Below are positions 1 through 9,207 of a DNA stretch of 64,000 nt, one piece after another. The stretch is from a virus. Lineage: Duplodnaviria > Caudoviricetes. The notes under the pieces are model-generated. The model saw only the letters and a program-made list of their open reading frames with translations. It made no database searches and was not told the origin of the DNA. Made by a program: the position numbers and the translations under genes. Location of the stretch: IMG/VR virus record IMGVR_UViG_3300028048_000064, positions 32,001-96,000 of that record; one strand, 5' to 3'. The stretch's first letter is position 1. Every line of letters starts with the position of its first letter.

Positions 1-1
1 T

Positions 2-1561
2 AATAAAATGAAAATACGCTGTAATATATGTGGCTATGAATTTGAACAAACTCCCAATAAACATTTATTGGGAAGAGGTTGCCCTAATTGTGGAAAAACT
101 AAACTATGGACAAATGAACAGTTTATAAATGCTGTAGAGAATAAATTTCCGGAACAGTTTACCTTTGAAAAAACAAAATATATTAATCAACGAACACCAA
201 TTGTTATCACATGTAAAAAACATGGGGATATTGAAGTTAATCCAAAAACTTTTCTTAATGGTGGTGGATGTAAATTCTGCCAAAAAGAAAAAAGAGAAGA
301 ATTTAAAAATAGTTTTTCAGAACGTGCAAGGAAAGTACATCCTATTGAAGAAGAACTTGACTACAGTAAAAGTGAATATGTTGATTATCACACAAAAATT
401 AAGATAATATGTCATAAGAAAGATGAATATGGAGTAGAACATGGTGAATTTTGGCAAACACCTGCACATCATCTAAATGGAGAAGGATGTCCTAAATGCA
501 AAGGTAATACTAAGATGAATGGGTATGATTTTGTGATTAAAGCAAAAAAAGTACATGGCGATAAATTTTCTTATTTTGAAGAAAAATATATTGGTTATAA
601 TGAAAATACTGATATTAAATGTAATACTTGCGGTAGAATTTTTCAGCAGACCCCACATAATCATCTGAAAGGTGAGGGATGTCCGTATTGTATATGTAAT
701 ATCTCAAAACCAGAAATTGATATAAGTGATTTTATTTCACAATTTGCTGATATAAGTACTAATAATAGAAAAATATTAAATAATTCAAAGGAAATTGATA
801 TTTTAATACCTTCTAAAAATATAGCATTTGAATATGATGGCTTGGTATGGCATTCAGAAAAGTTCGGTAAAGATAAAAACTACCATTTAAACAAAACAAA
901 AGAATGTTTGAATAACGGTATTCAACTTTATCATATATTTGAGGATGAATGGATATATAAACGTGAAATTGTGGTTTCTAAAATTAAAAACATAATAGGC
1001 ATAACTGAAAATAAAATATTTGCAAGAAAATGTATAATAAAGGAAATAACTGATATTGATACAAAGACGTTCCTTAATGCAAACCATCTACAGGGTTATT
1101 GTAATTCAAAATACAGATATGGATTATATTACAATGATGAATTAGTATCAGTTATGACATTTGGCCATCTGCGCAAAAATTTAGGAAGCAAAGGTAATAA
1201 TAATGAATATGAATTACTTAGGTTTTGTAATAAATTGAATACTACTGTTGTTGGTGGGGCTTCTAAACTTCTTAAATATTTTATAAAGTCAATTCAACCT
1301 AATAGAATTATAAGTTATGCTGATAAGAGATGGAGTAATGGTAATCTTTATAGAAAAATAGGATTTAAACAATTAAAAGATAGTGAGCCTGGCTATTTCT
1401 ATGTGGTTGGACAACACAGGGAAAATAGATTTAAATACCGTAAGGATGCTCTTATTAAAGAAGGATATGATAAGAATAAAACAGAACATGAAATAATGTT
1501 GGAACGTGGTATATATAGGATATATGATTGTGGAATGATGGCATTTGAAATAAAATTCTAA
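2..1561 (+). CDS. Zn-ribbon repeat + VSR/PD-(D/E)xK-like endonuclease + C-terminal GNAT/Mom-like domain (Hef-like homing endonuclease), probably 5'-truncated by the window edge
   Basis: Frame is open from base 2 (first ATG at 8). At least 4 Cys/His repeats (C..HGEFWQTP..HL.G.GCPKC), nuclease motif EIDILIP..IAFEYDG..WHS...HIFEDEW, and C-terminal YELLRFC..GGASKLL..ISYADKRWS.G.LY..GF...IYDCG. Confidence 0.8.
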   Translation, partial: NKMKIRCNICGYEFEQTPNKHLLGRGCPNCGKTKLWTNEQFINAVENKFPEQFTFEKTKYINQRTPIVITCKKHGDIEVNPKTFLNGGGCKFCQKEKREEFKNSFSERARKVHPIEEELDYSKSEYVDYHTKIKIICHKKDEYGVEHGEFWQTPAHHLNGEGCPKCKGNTKMNGYDFVIKAKKVHGDKFSYFEEKYIGYNENTDIKCNTCGRIFQQTPHNHLKGEGCPYCICNISKPEIDISDFISQFADISTNNRKILNNSKEIDILIPSKNIAFEYDGLVWHSEKFGKDKNYHLNKTKECLNNGIQLYHIFEDEWIYKREIVVSKIKNIIGITENKIFARKCIIKEITDIDTKTFLNANHLQGYCNSKYRYGLYYNDELVSVMTFGHLRKNLGSKGNNNEYELLRFCNKLNTTVVGGASKLLKYFIKSIQPNRIISYADKRWSNGNLYRKIGFKQLKDSEPGYFYVVGQHRENRFKYRKDALIKEGYDKNKTEHEIMLERGIYRIYDCGMMAFEIKF

Positions 1562-1637
1562 CTTTGTACCTTGATGTTTACTTTTTAGTCACATTATAAT
1601 ATTTATATATAAATAACAATAATAAAGATAATATATA

Positions 1638-2876
1638 ATGGGAAGACCACGTAAAACAACAGAAGAATGGTTTGAAGAGTGTAAAAAACGCCGTAAGGAT
1701 AAATGTAAAAATTTAAAATTAACTGAAAATTCGGTTTATCTTGGGCGTGAAAGTTTAATTGAACTTGAATGTACTAAGCATAATATAAGGTTTAGTTATA
1801 CAGCAGACTCTATTCTTAGAAGGGATACTATGTGCCCGGAATGCCTAAAAGAATATAGAGGAACTGATTATAAATCTTGGGAAAATAAAGCAAGAGAAGT
1901 TCATGGAGATGAATTTACATATCCTTATCTTAAAGATGAATATAAAGACATGCATAGTATGATTACCATGTTATGTAGTAACGGTCATACATTCAAACAA
2001 GATGCAACAAGTCATTTATCAGGGTGTGGTTGTCGTAAATGCTATGAAGAAAGTTTAAAGAAGCCAAAAGTTAGCTTTGAAGAATATCTTAAATTGGAAA
2101 AAGAAAAATTTGGAGATAAATTTGATTTAAGTAAATTTGAATACAAAGGTTTAAAAGAAAAATCAATTTATATTTGCCACTGTAAAGATAAAAATGGTGT
2201 TGAACATGGTGAATTTGAACAGTCACCATCAGCACATCTTAGAAGTAAAACAGGATGCCATAAGTGTTGTAATGAGCTAATAGCAAAAACACAAACTTTA
2301 ACAACAGAAGAATTTATTGAAAAGGCATTAAAAGTACACGGTGAAGACTTCAATTATAAAGATGCAAAATATATTAATGCAAAGGAAAATATATGGTTAA
2401 CATGTAATAATTGTGGCAATCATTTTCAAATAACACCAGATAATCATTTAAGAGGTGAAGGCTGTCCAAAATGTAATAAGAGTAAATTAGAAAGAAGTCT
2501 TGGTAATTTTTTTGAAAGTAAAAATATAGAATATGTTAAGGATTATATGAATAGTTTTAACAACTTAAGAAATGATTTTTATCTTCCTAAATATAATGTA
2601 ATAGTTGAGTGCCAAGGAACACAACATTTTAGACCAACATATTTTGGAAATTATAATAAAGAAAAGGCTGAGAGAAATTTAGAATATACTATTAGTTGTG
2701 ATGTACGTAAAAATAAGATAGCCAATGATTTAGGAATTAAGATTTTATATTTTATGGATAAACATAACTTTAAAGAGGAATACTTGGATAATGAAAAATA
2801 CTCTAAAATATATCAAAAAGATAACTTATTCACTAATATGTGTTCCATATTAGAAAAAATAAAAGAAGGTAGTTGA
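1638..2876 (+). CDS. Zn-ribbon repeat VSR/DUF559-like homing endonuclease (no GNAT tail)
   Basis: Four Cys/His repeats followed by SKLE...DFYLPKYNVIVECQGTQHF...D.RKN.IA...GIKILY. Confidence 0.78.
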   Translation: MGRPRKTTEEWFEECKKRRKDKCKNLKLTENSVYLGRESLIELECTKHNIRFSYTADSILRRDTMCPECLKEYRGTDYKSWENKAREVHGDEFTYPYLKDEYKDMHSMITMLCSNGHTFKQDATSHLSGCGCRKCYEESLKKPKVSFEEYLKLEKEKFGDKFDLSKFEYKGLKEKSIYICHCKDKNGVEHGEFEQSPSAHLRSKTGCHKCCNELIAKTQTLTTEEFIEKALKVHGEDFNYKDAKYINAKENIWLTCNNCGNHFQITPDNHLRGEGCPKCNKSKLERSLGNFFESKNIEYVKDYMNSFNNLRNDFYLPKYNVIVECQGTQHFRPTYFGNYNKEKAERNLEYTISCDVRKNKIANDLGIKILYFMDKHNFKEEYLDNEKYSKIYQKDNLFTNMCSILEKIKEGS

Positions 2877-2892
2877 AATCTCTACCTTCTTT
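2862..2892. terminator. Bidirectional intrinsic terminator
   Basis: Inverted repeat AAGAAGGTAG...CTACCTTCTT between convergent genes, with A/T-rich flanks. Confidence 0.7.
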
Positions 2893-2919
2893 ATAAGTTA
2901 TTCATTATCAGTAGGTTAA

Positions 2920-3408
2920 TTAGAAACTGAGGATACAGTACTGGGGACGTAATGTTAATGTCCATGTACTAAGTGAGTCGTCATCATAACTTAACTCACC
3001 ACCTGAAGCAGAAACAATCATTGCAGACTTGATAATCCATTGTGATACAGCAGTTCCGGTTGGATCCAACATCTCTAAGATGAGGTCTCTTTTATATGCA
3101 GCAGCATAGCCTTGACGTCCGGTAACTGATTCTGAATGAAGACGTACCCACTCCATAACAGCTTGTGATGCACTTGGGCCAATAGGGTCTCGTAGCTCGC
3201 AAGTAATTTGTTCCCACAAGTAGCGTCCAACCACCCAACTTGAAGTATTAAGGAATTGGATTTCAGTTTCATTTTGTGTAATTGTAGGACGTGAGCATGA
3301 TGATACCCACCATTCCTGTATTCCTAAATCTGAAGGAAATCTAAGTAAAAATCGATTTTTCCTGAGTGGCTCATATTCCACCGGCATCTTCAAGAGCATA
3401 TCTGGCAT
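2920..3408 (-). CDS. Tail tube protein (T4 gp19-like)
   Basis: 162 aa with EP.RKNRF, W..ITCELRDPI, VMEW, YKRDL.LEMLDP.G...QW, ELSY and final L.LRPQYC, the typical myovirus tube pattern. Confidence 0.85.
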   Translation of the reverse strand: MPDMLLKMPVEYEPLRKNRFLLRFPSDLGIQEWWVSSCSRPTITQNETEIQFLNTSSWVVGRYLWEQITCELRDPIGPSASQAVMEWVRLHSESVTGRQGYAAAYKRDLILEMLDPTGTAVSQWIIKSAMIVSASGGELSYDDDSLSTWTLTLRPQYCILSF

Positions 3409-3494
3409 TTGTGTATGTAAGTAAATAATATTTTTATTTTTATATTCTCTTTTTGTTATTTTTCAATTATAAATATGTTAAAAAACATTTTTTA

Positions 3495-3526
3495 TTTGCT
3501 TTTTTAAAAAAATTGTAGTATTTTTG
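3495..3526 (+). promoter_or_regulatory. Bacteroidota housekeeping-sigma promoter (-33/-7)
   Basis: TTTG(3495)-N20-TATTTTTG(3519) upstream of ORF 3569. Confidence 0.7.
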
Positions 3527-3568
3527 CAAACGGGATTAATATATATAAATAAGTATTAAAATAAAGAT

Positions 3569-5458
3569 ATGACAAAAGAGGAAAGATTTGAAGAATTTAA
3601 ATTAAAGGCTGTCAACACCCATAAGGGGTATTATATATATGACAAGGTTGATTATATAAACAGTACAACTAAAGTATGCATCATTTGTCCGCTGCATGGT
3701 GAATTTTGGCAAACACCGGCAGCACATATACAAGGGCAACATTGTCCTAAGTGTGCTAATAAAAAACGTGGAGATACTTTTAGGGGCAACAAGGATAATT
3801 TTATTTCAGAAGCAAGGAAGACACATGGTGACAAGTATGATTATTCAAAGGTAGAATATGAAAGTATGATGAAACCGGTTGAAATAGTGTGCAGCAAGCA
3901 TGGCTCTTTTTGGCAGATACCAATGCTTCATGTAAAAGGTCAAGGGTGTCCTAAATGTGCCGGACGTAACCATACAAATGAAGAAGTTGTTGAAAGGATG
4001 CAGTTGGCACATCCTTATGAAGACTATGACTATACAAAGGTTGAATTTACAAAGATGCATAACAAAGTGTGTATTGTGTGTCATAAAAAAGATAAGGACG
4101 GTAATGAACATGGTGAATTTTGGCAAACACCGGCCAAACACATTTATGGAAGGGGCTGTCCTAAATGTGGAAATATAAAGAAAAATGTTGATAGAAAAAT
4201 AACAGTAGAAAAGTTTAAAGAAAGAGGAAACAAGATTTTCAATGGGTTTTATGATTATCAATATGTGGATTTTGAGAATTTACATGATAAAGTTGATATA
4301 GTTTGTCCTGTTCACGGAAAATTTAAACAGATTGTTTGTGACCATTTGAATGGGCATGGTTGTACACAATGTGCTATTGATAAAACAAAATCAAATACTG
4401 AAGAATTTATTGCAAAATCTAAGATTATTCACGGTGGTAAATATGATTATTCAAAAGTAAATTATGTAAACAGTTATACTGAGGTATGTATTATATGCCC
4501 GGAACATGGAGAATTTTGGCAAGACCCCGGTACACATCTTAAAGGATGTGGTTGTCCTAAGTGTGGTAAGATAATTTCAAAGAATGAAGAGGAATTATAT
4601 CAATTTGTTTGCAATCTTGTTGGGGTAGATAATGTTATAAGAAATGACCGTGAGGTACTTAATGGAAAGGAGATTGACATATACATTCCGTCATTGAAAG
4701 TAGGAATTGAATATAATGGCGTTGTATGGCATTCAGAGAAGTTTGGTAAAGGAAGAAATTATCATATAGACAAGCTTAACGCAGCATTAGATAATGGTGT
4801 AAAACTAATTCAGATATTCGAGGACGAATTTATTGACTGTAAGAATATTGTATTAGGAAAGATACGTCATATATTAGGATATGACAATTATCAAGAGAAG
4901 ATATTTGGTAGGAAGTGCGAAATAAGGGAAATAGACAGATATACTTCAAAGGAGTTTCTTGTTACAAATCACATTCAAGGTTATGTTAAGTCAACAATGC
5001 ATTTAGGTGCGTTTTATAATAATAAGTTAGTTGCTGTGATGTCATTTAACAACATACAGAAAGGTGGTGATAAATGGGAATTAACGAGGTTTGCAAGTGA
5101 TATAACCAAGTTATGTTGTGGTATTGGTGGAAAGTTATTTAAATATTTTGTAGAGAAATACAATCCATCATATATAAAATCATTTGCTGATAGGAGGTGG
5201 ACAATGGATGAGAAATGTAATCTTTATACGAAACTTGGTTTTAATCTTGAAGAGATATTGAAACCAGAGTATAGGTATATAGAGAGTGGTTCTTATAAGA
5301 GGGCACACAAGTTTAATTTCAGAAAGAATACGTTAAGTAAGAAGTACGGTTTACCGTTGACAATGACTGAAACTGAGATGTGTGATGAGATTGGTGCTTA
5401 TAAGATTTGGGATTGCGGATTGCTAAAATATGTGTGGAAAAATAAAAAAATGCAGTAG
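3569..5458 (+). CDS. Zn-ribbon repeat + VSR/PD-(D/E)xK-like endonuclease + GNAT/Mom-like domain (Hef-like homing endonuclease)
   Basis: Five Cys/His repeats, EIDIYIP..VGIEYNG..WHS...QIFEDE, then WELTRFA..GIGGKLF..IKSFADRRW..LY..GF...IWDCG. Clear paralogue of ORF 2..1561. Confidence 0.8.
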   Translation: MTKEERFEEFKLKAVNTHKGYYIYDKVDYINSTTKVCIICPLHGEFWQTPAAHIQGQHCPKCANKKRGDTFRGNKDNFISEARKTHGDKYDYSKVEYESMMKPVEIVCSKHGSFWQIPMLHVKGQGCPKCAGRNHTNEEVVERMQLAHPYEDYDYTKVEFTKMHNKVCIVCHKKDKDGNEHGEFWQTPAKHIYGRGCPKCGNIKKNVDRKITVEKFKERGNKIFNGFYDYQYVDFENLHDKVDIVCPVHGKFKQIVCDHLNGHGCTQCAIDKTKSNTEEFIAKSKIIHGGKYDYSKVNYVNSYTEVCIICPEHGEFWQDPGTHLKGCGCPKCGKIISKNEEELYQFVCNLVGVDNVIRNDREVLNGKEIDIYIPSLKVGIEYNGVVWHSEKFGKGRNYHIDKLNAALDNGVKLIQIFEDEFIDCKNIVLGKIRHILGYDNYQEKIFGRKCEIREIDRYTSKEFLVTNHIQGYVKSTMHLGAFYNNKLVAVMSFNNIQKGGDKWELTRFASDITKLCCGIGGKLFKYFVEKYNPSYIKSFADRRWTMDEKCNLYTKLGFNLEEILKPEYRYIESGSYKRAHKFNFRKNTLSKKYGLPLTMTETEMCDEIGAYKIWDCGLLKYVWKNKKMQ

Positions 5459-5478
5459 TTATTTACTGCATTCTTTTT
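5445..5478. terminator. Bidirectional intrinsic terminator
   Basis: AATGCAGTA-gttatt-TACTGCATT with A/T tracts. Its arms encode the last codons of both convergent genes. Confidence 0.7.
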
Positions 5479-5855
5479 AATATGTTTAAAACATTATCTC
5501 TTACATCCATTTCAAGTTTTCTTATGACTTCATATCCGCCGCCACCATAACAATTTTTATCTGTGACACATGCAATATCATATTTGTCATATACAGCATC
5601 AAGTATGTCATCTGTTAAGATATCTTGCCAACAGTCATGGACTTCATTTTCTATGATGTCAGGATTATTAAGCATATCTTCTTCATCAAATTGATTTAAG
5701 ACATGTTTGCTTAATACATTAATTGCTTGTTTATATTTAGCATCATTTAGTTCAGTCCATTTGTCTATATTAGCTTCTTTTAATACCCTTTTTACAGATG
5801 TAGCAATAATATTATGAAACTGACTTTCTGTTAGTCTTATACTTTTCTTAGTCAT
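5463..5855 (-). CDS. Hypothetical protein, possible internal head protein
   Basis: 130 aa ORF; N-terminal IRLTESQFHNII..SVKRVLKE leader with L-x-E motifs. Confidence 0.55.
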   Translation of the reverse strand: MTKKSIRLTESQFHNIIATSVKRVLKEANIDKWTELNDAKYKQAINVLSKHVLNQFDEEDMLNNPDIIENEVHDCWQDILTDDILDAVYDKYDIACVTDKNCYGGGGYEVIRKLEMDVRDNVLNILKRMQ

Positions 5856-5879
5856 TTTACAAAAAATATATAAGAGGGA

Positions 5880-6311
5880 TTATACAGTTTGTTGTGGTTG
5901 TTTTTCTGCTTTGTTTGCATCTTCTGCTGCCTTGTCAACTGTTTGCCAGATTTTTTTGAGTAGCTGATAACTAGAAGAAGTTGGGTTATTTGCCAACTTT
6001 GAAATACCTTGAAGTGACAGAACACGTATTTTATCAATAATAGGCTTAATCTCAGCATCTACTTGTGACAAGTTCTGTGCAACCTTATCATCTTCTTCTG
6101 ATTTGAATGGTGTTGTATCCATTTGCTGTTGTGCTTCAGGTGATGCTTGTCGCATTTGTGCAAGGTTTGCCTTTGGTGGCAGTTGGTCTACATCTGCCAT
6201 TGGGTCATTATTTTCTCCGAATACAAGGCTTTCGACGGTCAGAGATGGTGTTTTATCTCTGAGAATAAGTTTCATTTCCTCAATCAGATTGCTACTATTA
6301 TTTTTATTCAT
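5880..6311 (-). CDS. Hypothetical protein
   Basis: 143 aa ORF preceded by an ATATTTAT motif; co-oriented with 5463..5855. Confidence 0.6.
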   Translation of the reverse strand: MNKNNSSNLIEEMKLILRDKTPSLTVESLVFGENNDPMADVDQLPPKANLAQMRQASPEAQQQMDTTPFKSEEDDKVAQNLSQVDAEIKPIIDKIRVLSLQGISKLANNPTSSSYQLLKKIWQTVDKAAEDANKAEKQPQQTV

Positions 6312-6403
6312 ATCTTTAAAAACGTTCTTAAATTATATATAATAAATATTAGGTGAAAAATAAAAATTAATGTAATTATATTATTGAAATATATTCATTT
6401 TTA

Positions 6404-6973
6404 ATGAAACAACCGGTAAAAGGCGGAAATAAAATAAAAAGGAAAACAAAAACAGTTAAGACTGGTAATCACAATCCATTTCGTAAGAGAAATCATACAC
6501 AAGAATATGGTACTTCAAAATTGGAGTATGATTTTGCACATGATTTCTTGGATAAATTGGGCTTAAAGTATGTTTACCAATTTTGTGCGGTCTCAATTGG
6601 GAGGTATTTTGACTTCGCAATTACGGCAGTTGAGAACTATCCTTACAAATATGTTATTAAGGAGGGAATTAATAGTATTGACCAAGATGCACAATGGTTT
6701 AAACCCGATTTCATCATTGAGGTGGATGGTGATTATTTTCATTCAAATCCATTATTAGTAAAGGAGGATAAACTTAATCCAATGCAGAAGCACAATAAGT
6801 TTGTTGATAAGTTAAAAGATGAATGGTGTGGAATGAATTGTATTCCTTTACTGAGAATATGGGAGTATGATATAAGACATAACCCCAAGAAAGTCATTGA
6901 TATGATTTGTGAGTATTCAAGTGCAGCAAAGAAAAGACAGATGATAAAGGAAAATAAAAAGAAGCCACATTAA
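6404..6973 (+). CDS. VSR/DUF559-like endonuclease
   Basis: SKLE...YFDF...IIEVDGDYFH...DKLKD...IPLLRIWE.DI motif set. Confidence 0.75.
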   Translation: MKQPVKGGNKIKRKTKTVKTGNHNPFRKRNHTQEYGTSKLEYDFAHDFLDKLGLKYVYQFCAVSIGRYFDFAITAVENYPYKYVIKEGINSIDQDAQWFKPDFIIEVDGDYFHSNPLLVKEDKLNPMQKHNKFVDKLKDEWCGMNCIPLLRIWEYDIRHNPKKVIDMICEYSSAAKKRQMIKENKKKPH

Positions 6974-7035
6974 CTGTTGATAATAAGTTAATTATGAATT
7001 AGGTTTATATTAAGATAAATTTTAATTGATGCGAA

Positions 7036-7629
7036 ATGAGAGCAGTATTATATGTACCATACAGTAACGGTGATGCACGCAATGGTTTCAAGTATGACAA
7101 GGAGATAAGTCAGAAAGAATATGCTGCCGCTATGGTTGATTATTACAATCAGCATAAGGATGGTATTGATAGTGTTTTTTACAGCAAGGGTTTAGGAAAG
7201 AACATTGCTGTAAATGGTTTTAGGAAGGAGAAGGTTAAATATAACCAACAGACTTTCTATTATCAGCCTGTTGAGGCAAAGGTATTTGATATTGATGGTA
7301 AAGACGAAAAGATTGATGAGTTAATTCAATTCTACAAGACAGGAGAACAATTTATTGTTATTGTTGCCTTATTGAATTTATCATCTGCTGACGAGACAGG
7401 TGAACTTGAAAGTGATATTAAGTCTTGGACAAGTGAGAGTATAAAGATAAACCGTACCAATAGGATGACAGAGGATGAGAAACTGAAAAGCCTTTCAAAG
7501 AAAAGTCTGAAGTTGAAGTTTAAAGACTCTAAGTCAAGCGCTATTTTGAAGAATTGCAAAATGGTTGAGGTTTACTCAAGGAATAAATTTGCATTGCTTG
7601 TTGAAAGTATAGATTTTGTACAAGAATAA
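7036..7629 (+). CDS. Hypothetical protein
   Basis: 197 aa ORF in operon orientation. Confidence 0.6.
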   Translation: MRAVLYVPYSNGDARNGFKYDKEISQKEYAAAMVDYYNQHKDGIDSVFYSKGLGKNIAVNGFRKEKVKYNQQTFYYQPVEAKVFDIDGKDEKIDELIQFYKTGEQFIVIVALLNLSSADETGELESDIKSWTSESIKINRTNRMTEDEKLKSLSKKSLKLKFKDSKSSAILKNCKMVEVYSRNKFALLVESIDFVQE

Positions 7630-7668
7630 GGCTATTAAAAATTAAAGATATATCTTTTTTAAAAGAAC

Positions 7669-9207
7669 ATGGATATTATTAACACAAATGGGAAGATGTC
7701 TCCTGAAGAGTTTGCTGCAAGAAGGAAAAAGGAACTTGCAATATTAAAGGCTTCAAATCAGATGCTTGAGGATGCAAAAAACAACCTTATTGCAATGAGT
7801 GAAGATGATATAGATATTCATAAGTATGCCGGTACACAAGAGTTGTCTAAACAAGACAAAATTAAGGCAATTGAAGAGGCACAGAAAGAGAATATTGCAG
7901 CAGGTCAGGCATATTATGGTGCGTCACCGGAAGAAATAGATAAGGCAACATATGGTGAACCTGATAAGGCTTCCATAAGGGCTTATGAAAATAGGCTCAA
8001 GATGAAGGGTATTACTGATGAGGAAATGCGTAGGAAAAGCATAGATGGTGCTATTGCCGAAGTAGTTGAAAACGAAGAGAGTAAACCAAAGCGTCGTTTA
8101 GGAAGACGTAAAAAGGAAAAGAAAGAGGAAGCAACTGAAACAGTATCACAGACGCAGGTAGAAAAAAAGAAAACAACTGTTGATGAGGTAGTAAGTGAAC
8201 CGATTGTTGAAGAAAAGAAATTTGAAACATCAAAGGAAGTATCATCAAAGATGGAAATAATCCAAGATGCGAAACCGTATATTGGTGGCGACGGTTTCAA
8301 GTTGTCAGATATACCTGATTACGTCCAATATGACATAATCCCTTTGCCATCTAATGGTGAATGTTATCCACATAAGAAGGATAGAATACCAGTGGCTTAT
8401 TTGACAGCATCTGACGAAAATATTATTGCATCCCCTAATATGTACCGTGATGGTAAGATTATTGATGCAATCCTTAGTAGAAAGATTTTGGATAAGACAA
8501 TTGACCCATCAACATTATGTGAAGGTGATAGGGATGCTGTTATCCTTTGGTTAAGGGCTACAGGGTATGGTGCTGATTTTCCTGTTAGTTTCACAAGTGC
8601 AACAGATGAGAATAAGACAATCAAGACAAAGGTTGACCTTAGTAAGTTGAAGTATAAGGATTTTAATTTGAAAGGTGACGAAAATGGTTTATTCAGTTTC
8701 TATGACAGTAAGGGTAATGAATTAAAATTCAGATTCTTCACCAAGGGTGACAAGGATAAGTTATCAAAGGATTTTGAAAAACGTGCAAATATTCTTGATG
8801 TTACAGAGATTGGCAAGTGTACTGAGATATTGAGGGAATGCTTTAACAGAGATACTTCATTGGAAGGTGATGATAAGGAAGATGTTAAGGATGCAATTGA
8901 TATATTGAATGAATGGGCAAATACCTATGAAATTGATGAAAGTATCGAAAAACTCGGCTATAATACCTATATAACAGAGATGATGAAGTTGCACACTGTA
9001 TCTATTAACGGTAATACTGATAGAGAGTATATTTCTAATTTCATTGATAACATGAGGTCATTGGATGCTTATTCATATAGGAATTACATTACAACAAATA
9101 CACCGGGTGTTGATTTCAGAATAAAGATTAATATCCCAGAGTCAGATGGAGGTGGCTCTTTTGAAACCTTTCTTAGACTCGACGATTTTGTTTTCACTAA
9201 TGTATGA
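7669..9207 (+). CDS. Baseplate hub assembly / tail assembly chaperone (T4 gp26-like) with long charged N-terminal extension
   Basis: C-terminal half has LPSNGECY, YLTASDENI, L..GDRDA..LWLRATGYG, PGVDF; lies just upstream of the tape measure gene. Confidence 0.65.
   Translation: MDIINTNGKMSPEEFAARRKKELAILKASNQMLEDAKNNLIAMSEDDIDIHKYAGTQELSKQDKIKAIEEAQKENIAAGQAYYGASPEEIDKATYGEPDKASIRAYENRLKMKGITDEEMRRKSIDGAIAEVVENEESKPKRRLGRRKKEKKEEATETVSQTQVEKKKTTVDEVVSEPIVEEKKFETSKEVSSKMEIIQDAKPYIGGDGFKLSDIPDYVQYDIIPLPSNGECYPHKKDRIPVAYLTASDENIIASPNMYRDGKIIDAILSRKILDKTIDPSTLCEGDRDAVILWLRATGYGADFPVSFTSATDENKTIKTKVDLSKLKYKDFNLKGDENGLFSFYDSKGNELKFRFFTKGDKDKLSKDFEKRANILDVTEIGKCTEILRECFNRDTSLEGDDKEDVKDAIDILNEWANTYEIDESIEKLGYNTYITEMMKLHTVSINGNTDREYISNFIDNMRSLDAYSYRNYITTNTPGVDFRIKINIPESDGGGSFETFLRLDDFVFTNV

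Follow-up and report, generated by a model that had tools for sequence, protein, structure and literature searches.

Hef-like homing endonuclease genes with a predicted Mom-like GNAT domain around the tail tube gene of an uncultured jumbo phage

Three paralogues around a tail tube gene

This report concerns three genes, P1, P2 and P3, that lie around a tail tube gene at the start of a 64,000-nucleotide stretch of viral DNA, called the window throughout. The window comprises bases 32001-96000 of a 149,924-base IMG/VR virus record (IMGVR_UViG_3300028048_000064; CheckV completeness 41%). Relatives of this virus measure 340-400 kb, which identifies its source as a jumbo phage; the host genome of P1-P3 is that of an uncultured jumbo phage of about 360 kb. 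Each of the three genes encodes an array of zinc modules followed by a nuclease domain, and P1 and P3 continue into a further C-terminal domain, which by modelling and sequence comparison is a GNAT resembling the Mom protein of phage Mu.

All three open reading frames (ORFs) are on the + strand, at the coordinates assigned to them in a preliminary description of this DNA. P1 occupies positions 1..1561 (in-window ORF 8..1561) and is cut by the window edge; in the full record its start lies about 100-110 nt upstream, giving a complete ORF of 553-556 amino acids (aa). Motif positions place four zinc modules in P1, one of which begins upstream of the window, followed by the nuclease at approximately 700-1000 and the GNAT domain at 1001-1558. 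P1 is matched by PHROG 559, by PHROG 1384 and, below the Pfam cut-off, by Pfam Mom. P2 (1638..2876, +; PHROG 559 and 9084) consists of a zinc array and a divergent Vsr-like nuclease (~2481-2873). The ORF stops directly after the nuclease, in agreement with the earlier observation that P2 lacks the C-terminal domain. With a gap of just 43 nt (2877-2919) to the following gene, no GNAT remnant is left in P2. The tail tube gene (2920..3408, -; PHROG 4542, E value (E) 1.9e-27) sits between P2 and P3, a conserved neighbour amid inserted endonuclease genes, with 445 relatives in viral contigs. P3 begins with an array of five treble-clef zinc modules (3569..4570, +), recognised by Pfam DUF4379/DUF723, by PHROG 4605 in five stretches and by a regular expression for the module. 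The Vsr-like (EDxHD-type) nuclease domain follows at 4571..4888 (+), assigned by structural modelling, structural alignment and conservation, and the Mom-like GNAT domain at 4886..5458 (+), assigned by modelling, Foldseek, hhalign and column conservation.

P1, P2 and P3 are paralogues with pairwise identities of 29-38%, and as judged from their sequences they are old ones. A further member of the family, P4, is found in the record outside the window (C1:15020-16903) and carries the GNAT domain. A profile search of the record for this domain recovers three copies only, those of P1, P3 and P4. The record also holds a fifth family member at C1 ~140,890-142,140 (+), which is about 34% identical to P2 over 335 residues.

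Zinc array and family membership

The N-termini of P1, P2 and P3 each contain 4-5 treble-clef zinc modules of about 60-70 aa (Pfam DUF4379/DUF723), and the PHROG 4605 profile matches up to five times per protein along these arrays. We infer that the array is a swappable part that reads the DNA target. P1 (E 1.1e-140) and P3 (E 2.1e-129) match PHROG 559 along the whole profile, up to its end, while P2 (E 6e-50) matches only profile positions 57-428 of 607. The nuclease part of P2 matches both PHROG 559 and PHROG 9084 'homing endonuclease', and full-length matches to PHROG 3339 were obtained as well. The preliminary description had stated that such phage proteins are usually labelled Hef-like; relatives found by tblastn in 1054 phage records bear the labels 'homing endonuclease', 'Hef-like homing endonuclease', 'endonuclease-like protein' or hypothetical. 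We place P1-P3 in the 'Hef-like' family (PHROG 559), and their behaviour is that of free-standing homing endonuclease genes. Other searches were less informative: a megablast of window positions 1-8000 against phage records gave no match, phmmer of P1 against PDB sequences returned chance zinc-ribbon matches only, and an NCBIfam scan yielded nothing useful.

A Vsr-like nuclease domain

The nuclease domain spans about 105 aa C-terminal to the zinc array. P3 residues 320-629, which include this domain and the GNAT domain, were modelled with AlphaFold2 on an alignment of 44 sequences, with a predicted local distance difference test score (pLDDT) of 94.3 and a predicted template modelling score (pTM) of 0.89. 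In structural alignments (VIA-align), the modelled P3 nuclease matches Neisseria NGO0050 (3hrl) with Z 11.9, the catalytic domain of the homing endonuclease I-Bth0305I (3r3p, chain B) with Z 11.8 (root-mean-square deviation 2.9, 96/98 residues aligned), and Vsr (1cw0) with Z 11.6. Conserved residues are E368, D370, E381, H388, H399, K402 and E418-D419-E420 in P3, corresponding to E49, D51, E62, H69, H80, K83 and E99-D100-E101 in domain numbering. All of these columns are kept in at least 84% of the 44 sequences (E49 in 39, D51 in 37, H69 in 39, the others in at least 40), and they are intact in every GNAT-bearing paralogue of the record (P1, P3, P4). The nuclease of P2 is more divergent, with D, E, H and D still present.

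By its modelled fold and its catalytic residues, the nuclease is Vsr-like, of the EDxHD type, and it probably cuts DNA. The label 'HNH endonuclease' attached to PHROG 559 was considered and dropped, as no HNH motif or fold was found in this Vsr-like domain. I-Bth0305I has the same nuclease fold, with conserved acidic and histidine residues, at about 21% sequence identity to the P3 nuclease. It differs in having an N-terminal DNA-binding region of its own and in ending with the nuclease, which is its C-terminal domain, so that it has no GNAT.

A gene downstream of P3 (6404-6973, +) encodes a protein of 189 aa, little more than a single Vsr-like nuclease domain, which matches the nuclease part of PHROG 559 weakly (E 1.6e-5). 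In contrast to P1-P3, this gene keeps the same position in nearly all relatives; by this conservation in place it looks like a core gene rather than a mobile one. In two of the relatives (L006, L038) its counterpart consists of two overlapping pieces and is possibly frameshifted.

The C-terminal domain resembles Mom

The extra domain of P1 and P3 is about 185 aa long. The preliminary description had noticed in both proteins a motif order shared with phage Mu Mom, and the motif is indeed present in P1 (YELLRF..GGASKL..IISYADKRW..GNLYRKIGF) and in P3 (WELTRF..GIGGKL..IKSFADRRW..CNLYTKLGF), with the same order in Mom (ELNRM..SFADERC..VVYQASNF). It had also suggested AlphaFold and Foldseek as a check on the resemblance; this comparison yields a GNAT fold with Mom as the closest solved structure. 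Modelled alone with AlphaFold2 on 36 sequences, the P3 domain reaches a pLDDT of 95.7, and Foldseek against the PDB places phage Mu Mom (8bv8) at the top (E 1.3e-8), with ordinary GNAT acetyltransferases next. The model has 250 PDB matches at E<=0.001; among the matches listed, Mom is followed by GNAT acetyltransferases. VIA-align gives Z 11-13.5 to many GNATs, with Mom (Z 12.0) contributing the longest aligned stretch, 149 residues.

Profile comparisons point the same way. P1 matches PHROG 1384 'Mom-like DNA modification protein' with E 2.9e-12, and hhalign of the 176-sequence domain family against a 108-sequence Mom family gives a probability of 93% and E 3.5e-7. The profile of the domain family matches the single Mu Mom sequence only weakly (E 0.012), the similarity becoming significant only with the Mom-family profile. 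Among 36 family members, 26 match Pfam Acetyltransf_7 and 20 match Pfam Mom (E<=0.01, best 4.8e-6). Overall, the resemblance of the C-terminal domain to Mom is well beyond chance.

At the level of residues, comparison is possible with Mom mutants whose activity is abolished or drastically reduced, namely those in H58, R111, D149, R151 and Y159 (Silva et al. 2026, PMC13219725); R111, D149 and R151 are essential or nearly so, and H58 and Y159 are important (PMC13219725). The hhalign map takes these five to H29, R68, D102, R104 and Y114 of the domain, which are H468, R507, D541, R543 and Y553 of P3. Among the 176 sequences, H29, R68 and D102 never vary; R104 is present in 173 of them and Y114 in 174. 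The essential S124 of Mom falls, in one alignment, on domain position 82, which is G in P3 and S in P1 (G in 95, S in 66 and N in 12 of the 176); in a second alignment, it falls on a non-conserved column.

Two further features distinguish the domain or bear on its later part. The glycine loop of P3, G518-x-G520-G521-K522, fits the G-x-G/A pattern of GNATs that bind coenzyme A (CoA), where Mom instead has N-S-E-S-R. Across the family, G79 of this loop never varies, position 81 holds G or A and position 82 holds G or S, and 170 of 176 sequences have K83. The Q/R that opens the full motif A loop (Q/R-x-x-G-x-G/A), which binds the CoA pyrophosphate in GNATs, is not fixed. In the P3 model, extra helices (domain residues 142-168) lie ahead of the last two strands, where Mom carries a helix-turn-helix (HTH)-like insertion. 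In Mom, this insertion between the last beta strands is needed for activity (PMC13219725). The last third of the domain gave no sequence alignment to Mom, even under relaxed settings.

From the model and these alignments, we regard the C-terminal domain as a Mom-like GNAT belonging to a sister family of Mom. It shares with Mu Mom (8bv8) the GNAT fold, as its best structural match, and the conserved equivalents of H58, R111, D149, R151 and Y159. Mom differs in standing alone, as a protein of 241 aa, whereas the domain of P1 and P3 is fused to a nuclease. To modify adenine N6 in double-stranded DNA, Mom draws on Gly-tRNA(Gly) and not on acyl-CoA (Silva et al. 2026, PMC13219725). The preliminary description had proposed that the idea of a DNA-modifying domain would fall if no acyl-CoA pocket were found; given the donor used by Mom, a missing pocket would not decide the question.

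The genes are individually mobile

Window genes were mapped onto 80 loci around homologues of the tail tube gene, with close relatives defined by a tail tube protein at least 85% identical. Even among close relatives, the three genes come and go. L006 has neither P2 nor P3, L011 lacks P3, L009 lacks P1, L012 lacks P2, and L016 has none of the three. More distant loci (L019, L026, L039, L041, L044 and others) have no such endonuclease gene at this place. P2 is a clean 1.37-kb insertion relative to 69 nt at the same spot in L006. P1, P2 and P3 are individually mobile, each being present or absent independently of the others. An attempt to deduce the target sites from gene-less alleles failed, because the relatives, at 73-86% DNA identity, are too diverged.

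P4 provides a second setting. It lies between the N- and C-halves of a split intein in the family B DNA polymerase (PolB) gene, the layout known as a 'fractured gene'. Vsr-like homing endonucleases were first described in this setting (Dassa et al. 2009, PMC2677866; Taylor et al. 2011, PMC3239194), and genes of the EDxHD/Vsr-like type are likewise either free-standing or placed between split-intein halves in replication genes (PMC2677866, PMC3239194). The presence/absence polymorphism, together with the copy inside a split intein, supports the earlier suggestion that these genes are selfish elements.

The split polymerase locus extends over C1:13354-19515. An 845-aa N-part ending in the intein N-half is followed by P4, then by a short frame with the intein C-half ending ..SN/TDG plus stop, and then by a 447-aa C-part. 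In L086/L087 (9654-12990), the polymerase N-part is followed by two oppositely oriented genes of the nuclease-GNAT type, which share 44% and 32% identity with P4, from which it appears that the gap in the polymerase can hold more than one such gene.

A nuclease-GNAT cassette behind variable heads

A profile search found the GNAT domain in 18,555 of 1.84 billion cluster representatives, 6,029 of them at E<=1e-30. It almost always forms the C-terminus of proteins of 350-870 aa. The Vsr-like nuclease is present in 137 of 141 GNAT-bearing representatives of at least 300 aa, among the matches listed. The N-terminal heads vary, and include DUF723/DUF4379 arrays, Ros/MucR zinc fingers, KilA/ANT-like regions and even an additional GIY-YIG. 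Nuclease and GNAT are thus a conserved pair of catalytic domains, a cassette to which different DNA-binding heads are joined. In the P3 model, the two domains are confidently packed as one unit, as reflected in its pTM.

Apparent 'stand-alone' GNAT proteins were considered as a sign of independent function, an idea that was dropped: the two inspected look like split or decayed copies. One (P0042) directly follows a zinc-array ORF and the other (P0060) a short unidentified ORF, with tail tube or capsid genes adjacent. A metagenomic representative of 723 aa (P0134) combines GIY-YIG, a DUF723 zinc module and the C-terminal GNAT, and may carry two different nuclease domains in one protein.

What the GNAT domain may do

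Why would a homing endonuclease carry a GNAT? On the evidence of sequence, models and analogy, we tentatively favour, at somewhat less than even odds, a homing enzyme in which the GNAT domain marks the DNA of its own genome and the nuclease cuts an unmarked competitor. P1, P2 and P3 would have invaded the intergenic spaces around the tail tube gene. The zinc array would bind the target, where the Vsr-like nuclease would cut. The GNAT would be an active enzyme, adding an acyl or aminoacyl group, from acyl-CoA or an aminoacyl-tRNA, to adenine N6 in DNA held by the same protein. A genome carrying the gene would then enter the next cell already modified and resist cutting, and an unmodified competitor would be cut and repaired by copying the gene. 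The same protein would either cut or mark its site, with self and non-self told apart by an inherited mark. This hypothesis, in essence that of the preliminary description, is the most economical one. We infer this last step, the protection of the carrier and the cutting of the unmodified competitor, from the combination of domains. Two observations speak for the scheme. The residues that form the active site of Mom are nearly invariant, which points to an active enzyme whose chemistry, like that of Mom, acts on a flipped adenine; and the domain is constantly tied to a nuclease and to DNA-binding heads, which points to the DNA under the protein as its substrate.

The proposed logic is that of Type IIG/IIC restriction-modification enzymes, in which one polypeptide uses one recognition module for both nuclease and modifier and a prior mark denotes self. 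These combine a methyltransferase dependent on S-adenosylmethionine with a PD-(D/E)XK nuclease and serve cellular defence; in the Hef-like proteins a GNAT would take the place of the methyltransferase, and the gene belongs to the mobile elements of a phage.

Several points weigh against the scheme of marking and cutting. Our literature search turned up no experimental study of this GNAT domain in the Hef-like family. P2-type relatives have no GNAT domain, which makes it dispensable for homing as such. Cutting and protecting at the same site can discriminate between genomes only if the mark is inherited through packaging. Hef has also been reported to cut the DNA of its own phage in vitro. Turning to the domain itself, the Pfam Mom (PF25680) scores of P1 and P3 lie below the gathering threshold of 27.1 bits (P1, 23.7; P3, 13.2 for the whole protein and 16.2 for the domain alone), and in the alignments the essential S124 of Mom has no secure equivalent in the family. 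The canonical G-x-G/A loop of GNATs is kept although Mom is without it, so the chemistry may differ. The sub-threshold scores and the retained loop are what set the domain apart as a Mom-like sister family rather than Mom proper.

Could the fusion instead be a weapon, akin to restriction-modification rather than a homing drive? The GNAT would then mark the phage's own DNA broadly, the nuclease would degrade host or superinfecting DNA, and the patchy distribution would reflect turnover in an arms race. Such a role has been stated for jumbo phages, with several copies per genome (Iyer et al. 2021, PMC7824862), and it would suit both the presence of at least three GNAT-bearing copies in this record and the fact that Mom itself is an anti-restriction enzyme (PMC13219725). 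We nevertheless think it unlikely. The copies are found where homing genes classically reside, next to the tail tube gene and within the PolB split intein, and close relatives differ by the gain or loss of single genes. Moreover, the nuclease has the fold of a proven homing endonuclease. That every copy comes with a zinc array of its own also suggests a small number of long, specific sites and not marks spread over the whole genome.

It is less likely still that the GNAT modifies no DNA and serves as a dimerisation, DNA-clamping or base-flipping module, bringing together two nicking Vsr-like domains for a double-strand break. Mom is a tight dimer with a DNA-binding cleft (PMC13219725), and I-Bth0305I must dimerise (PMC3239194). 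The packing of nuclease and GNAT as one unit in the model would fit such a structural role, as would the insecure conservation of S124. Yet equivalents of the catalytic R, D, R, Y and H of Mom, together with the glycine loop, are invariant or nearly so in 176 diverse sequences, which is more than a scaffold usually needs; and enzymes of the P2 and I-Bth0305I types manage without such a domain.

An action on something other than DNA (aminoacyl-tRNA, as in the TacT/AtaT toxins, a host repair protein, or the protein itself), tuning host physiology or repair after the cut, would draw on the great diversity of GNAT substrates, on family members matching generic acetyltransferase models as often as Mom, and on the retained CoA-type loop, but it is improbable given that Mom, the closest structure, is alone among GNATs in being known to act on DNA, that the conserved residues are those of Mom around the flipped adenine, and that the domain is nearly always tethered to DNA-binding and DNA-cutting modules.

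The favoured scheme of marking and cutting could in principle extend to the family as a whole. The Mom-like domain would then mark an adenine in its own target with an acyl or aminoacyl group, and the mark, packaged with the DNA, would act as an epigenetic immunity by which a carrier keeps an intact target uncut. Such a homing element would resemble a restriction-modification system in a single protein. This wider statement is possible but doubtful.

Precedent and significance

The cut-and-protect idea for this kind of fusion is already in print (PMC7824862); the nuclease family, too, has been described before, along with its settings in inteins and introns. Iyer, Anantharaman, Krishnan, Burroughs and Aravind (2021, Viruses 13:63, PMC7824862) proposed combined modification and restriction for Mom-nuclease fusions in jumbo phages. 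As in P1, P3 and P4, their fusions join a Mom-type GNAT to a DNase of the restriction-endonuclease fold, occur in several copies per jumbo-phage genome, and are predicted to modify and to cleave. Their paper frames them as a conflict system resembling restriction-modification and never mentions homing. P1-P4, by comparison with that account, are individually mobile, lie beside a structural gene and inside a split intein, and belong to the annotation family 'Hef-like'. Hef-like homing endonucleases of T4-related and other phages (PHROG 559/3339; F-LimIII, VII, VIII and X of LIMEstone, PMC3296691) include relatives that cover the GNAT region too, and their annotations never mention a Mom-like domain. 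In our literature search, we found no explicit link between the fusions of Mom with restriction endonucleases and 'Hef-like' homing genes supported by gene-by-gene evidence of mobility, no residue-level comparison of the domain with the Mom structure released in 2023, and no mention of the canonical GNAT loop kept in the domain family.

For the window alone, these results amount to better annotation and not to a new kind of system. More widely, databases label the nuclease-GNAT cassette 'HNH' or 'homing endonuclease' and so overlook a second enzyme domain, in more than 18,000 clusters and about 1000 sequenced phages. If the domain does mark DNA, this would be a so far unrecognised way for homing endonucleases to spare their own genome. 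Phage DNA would then bear adenine marks at specific sites, which have so far escaped any search, and the family might represent a second class of DNA-aminoacylating enzymes. The chemistry of Mom, which takes glycine from charged tRNA, was solved only in 2026, and the same assays can now be used on the Hef-like family.

Other features of the locus

An ORF of 130 aa without a family match (5463-5855, -) stands tail-to-tail with P3 and is itself an indel. It accompanies P3 in L009 (95% identical) and L010, and is missing from the P3-bearing L007 and L012. The motif TAnnTTTG, found 72 nt before P2 and 43 nt before P3, was considered as a promoter and rejected, as it is not enriched in the window (88 seen versus ~98 expected).

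Finally, the segment at approximately 2900-6320, which contains the tail tube gene and an ORF at 5880-6311, is inverted relative to the flanking genes in the window and in its closest relatives; in L019, L026, L039, L041 and L044, the same genes are all on one strand. Endonuclease genes are found at both junctions of the inverted block and inside it.

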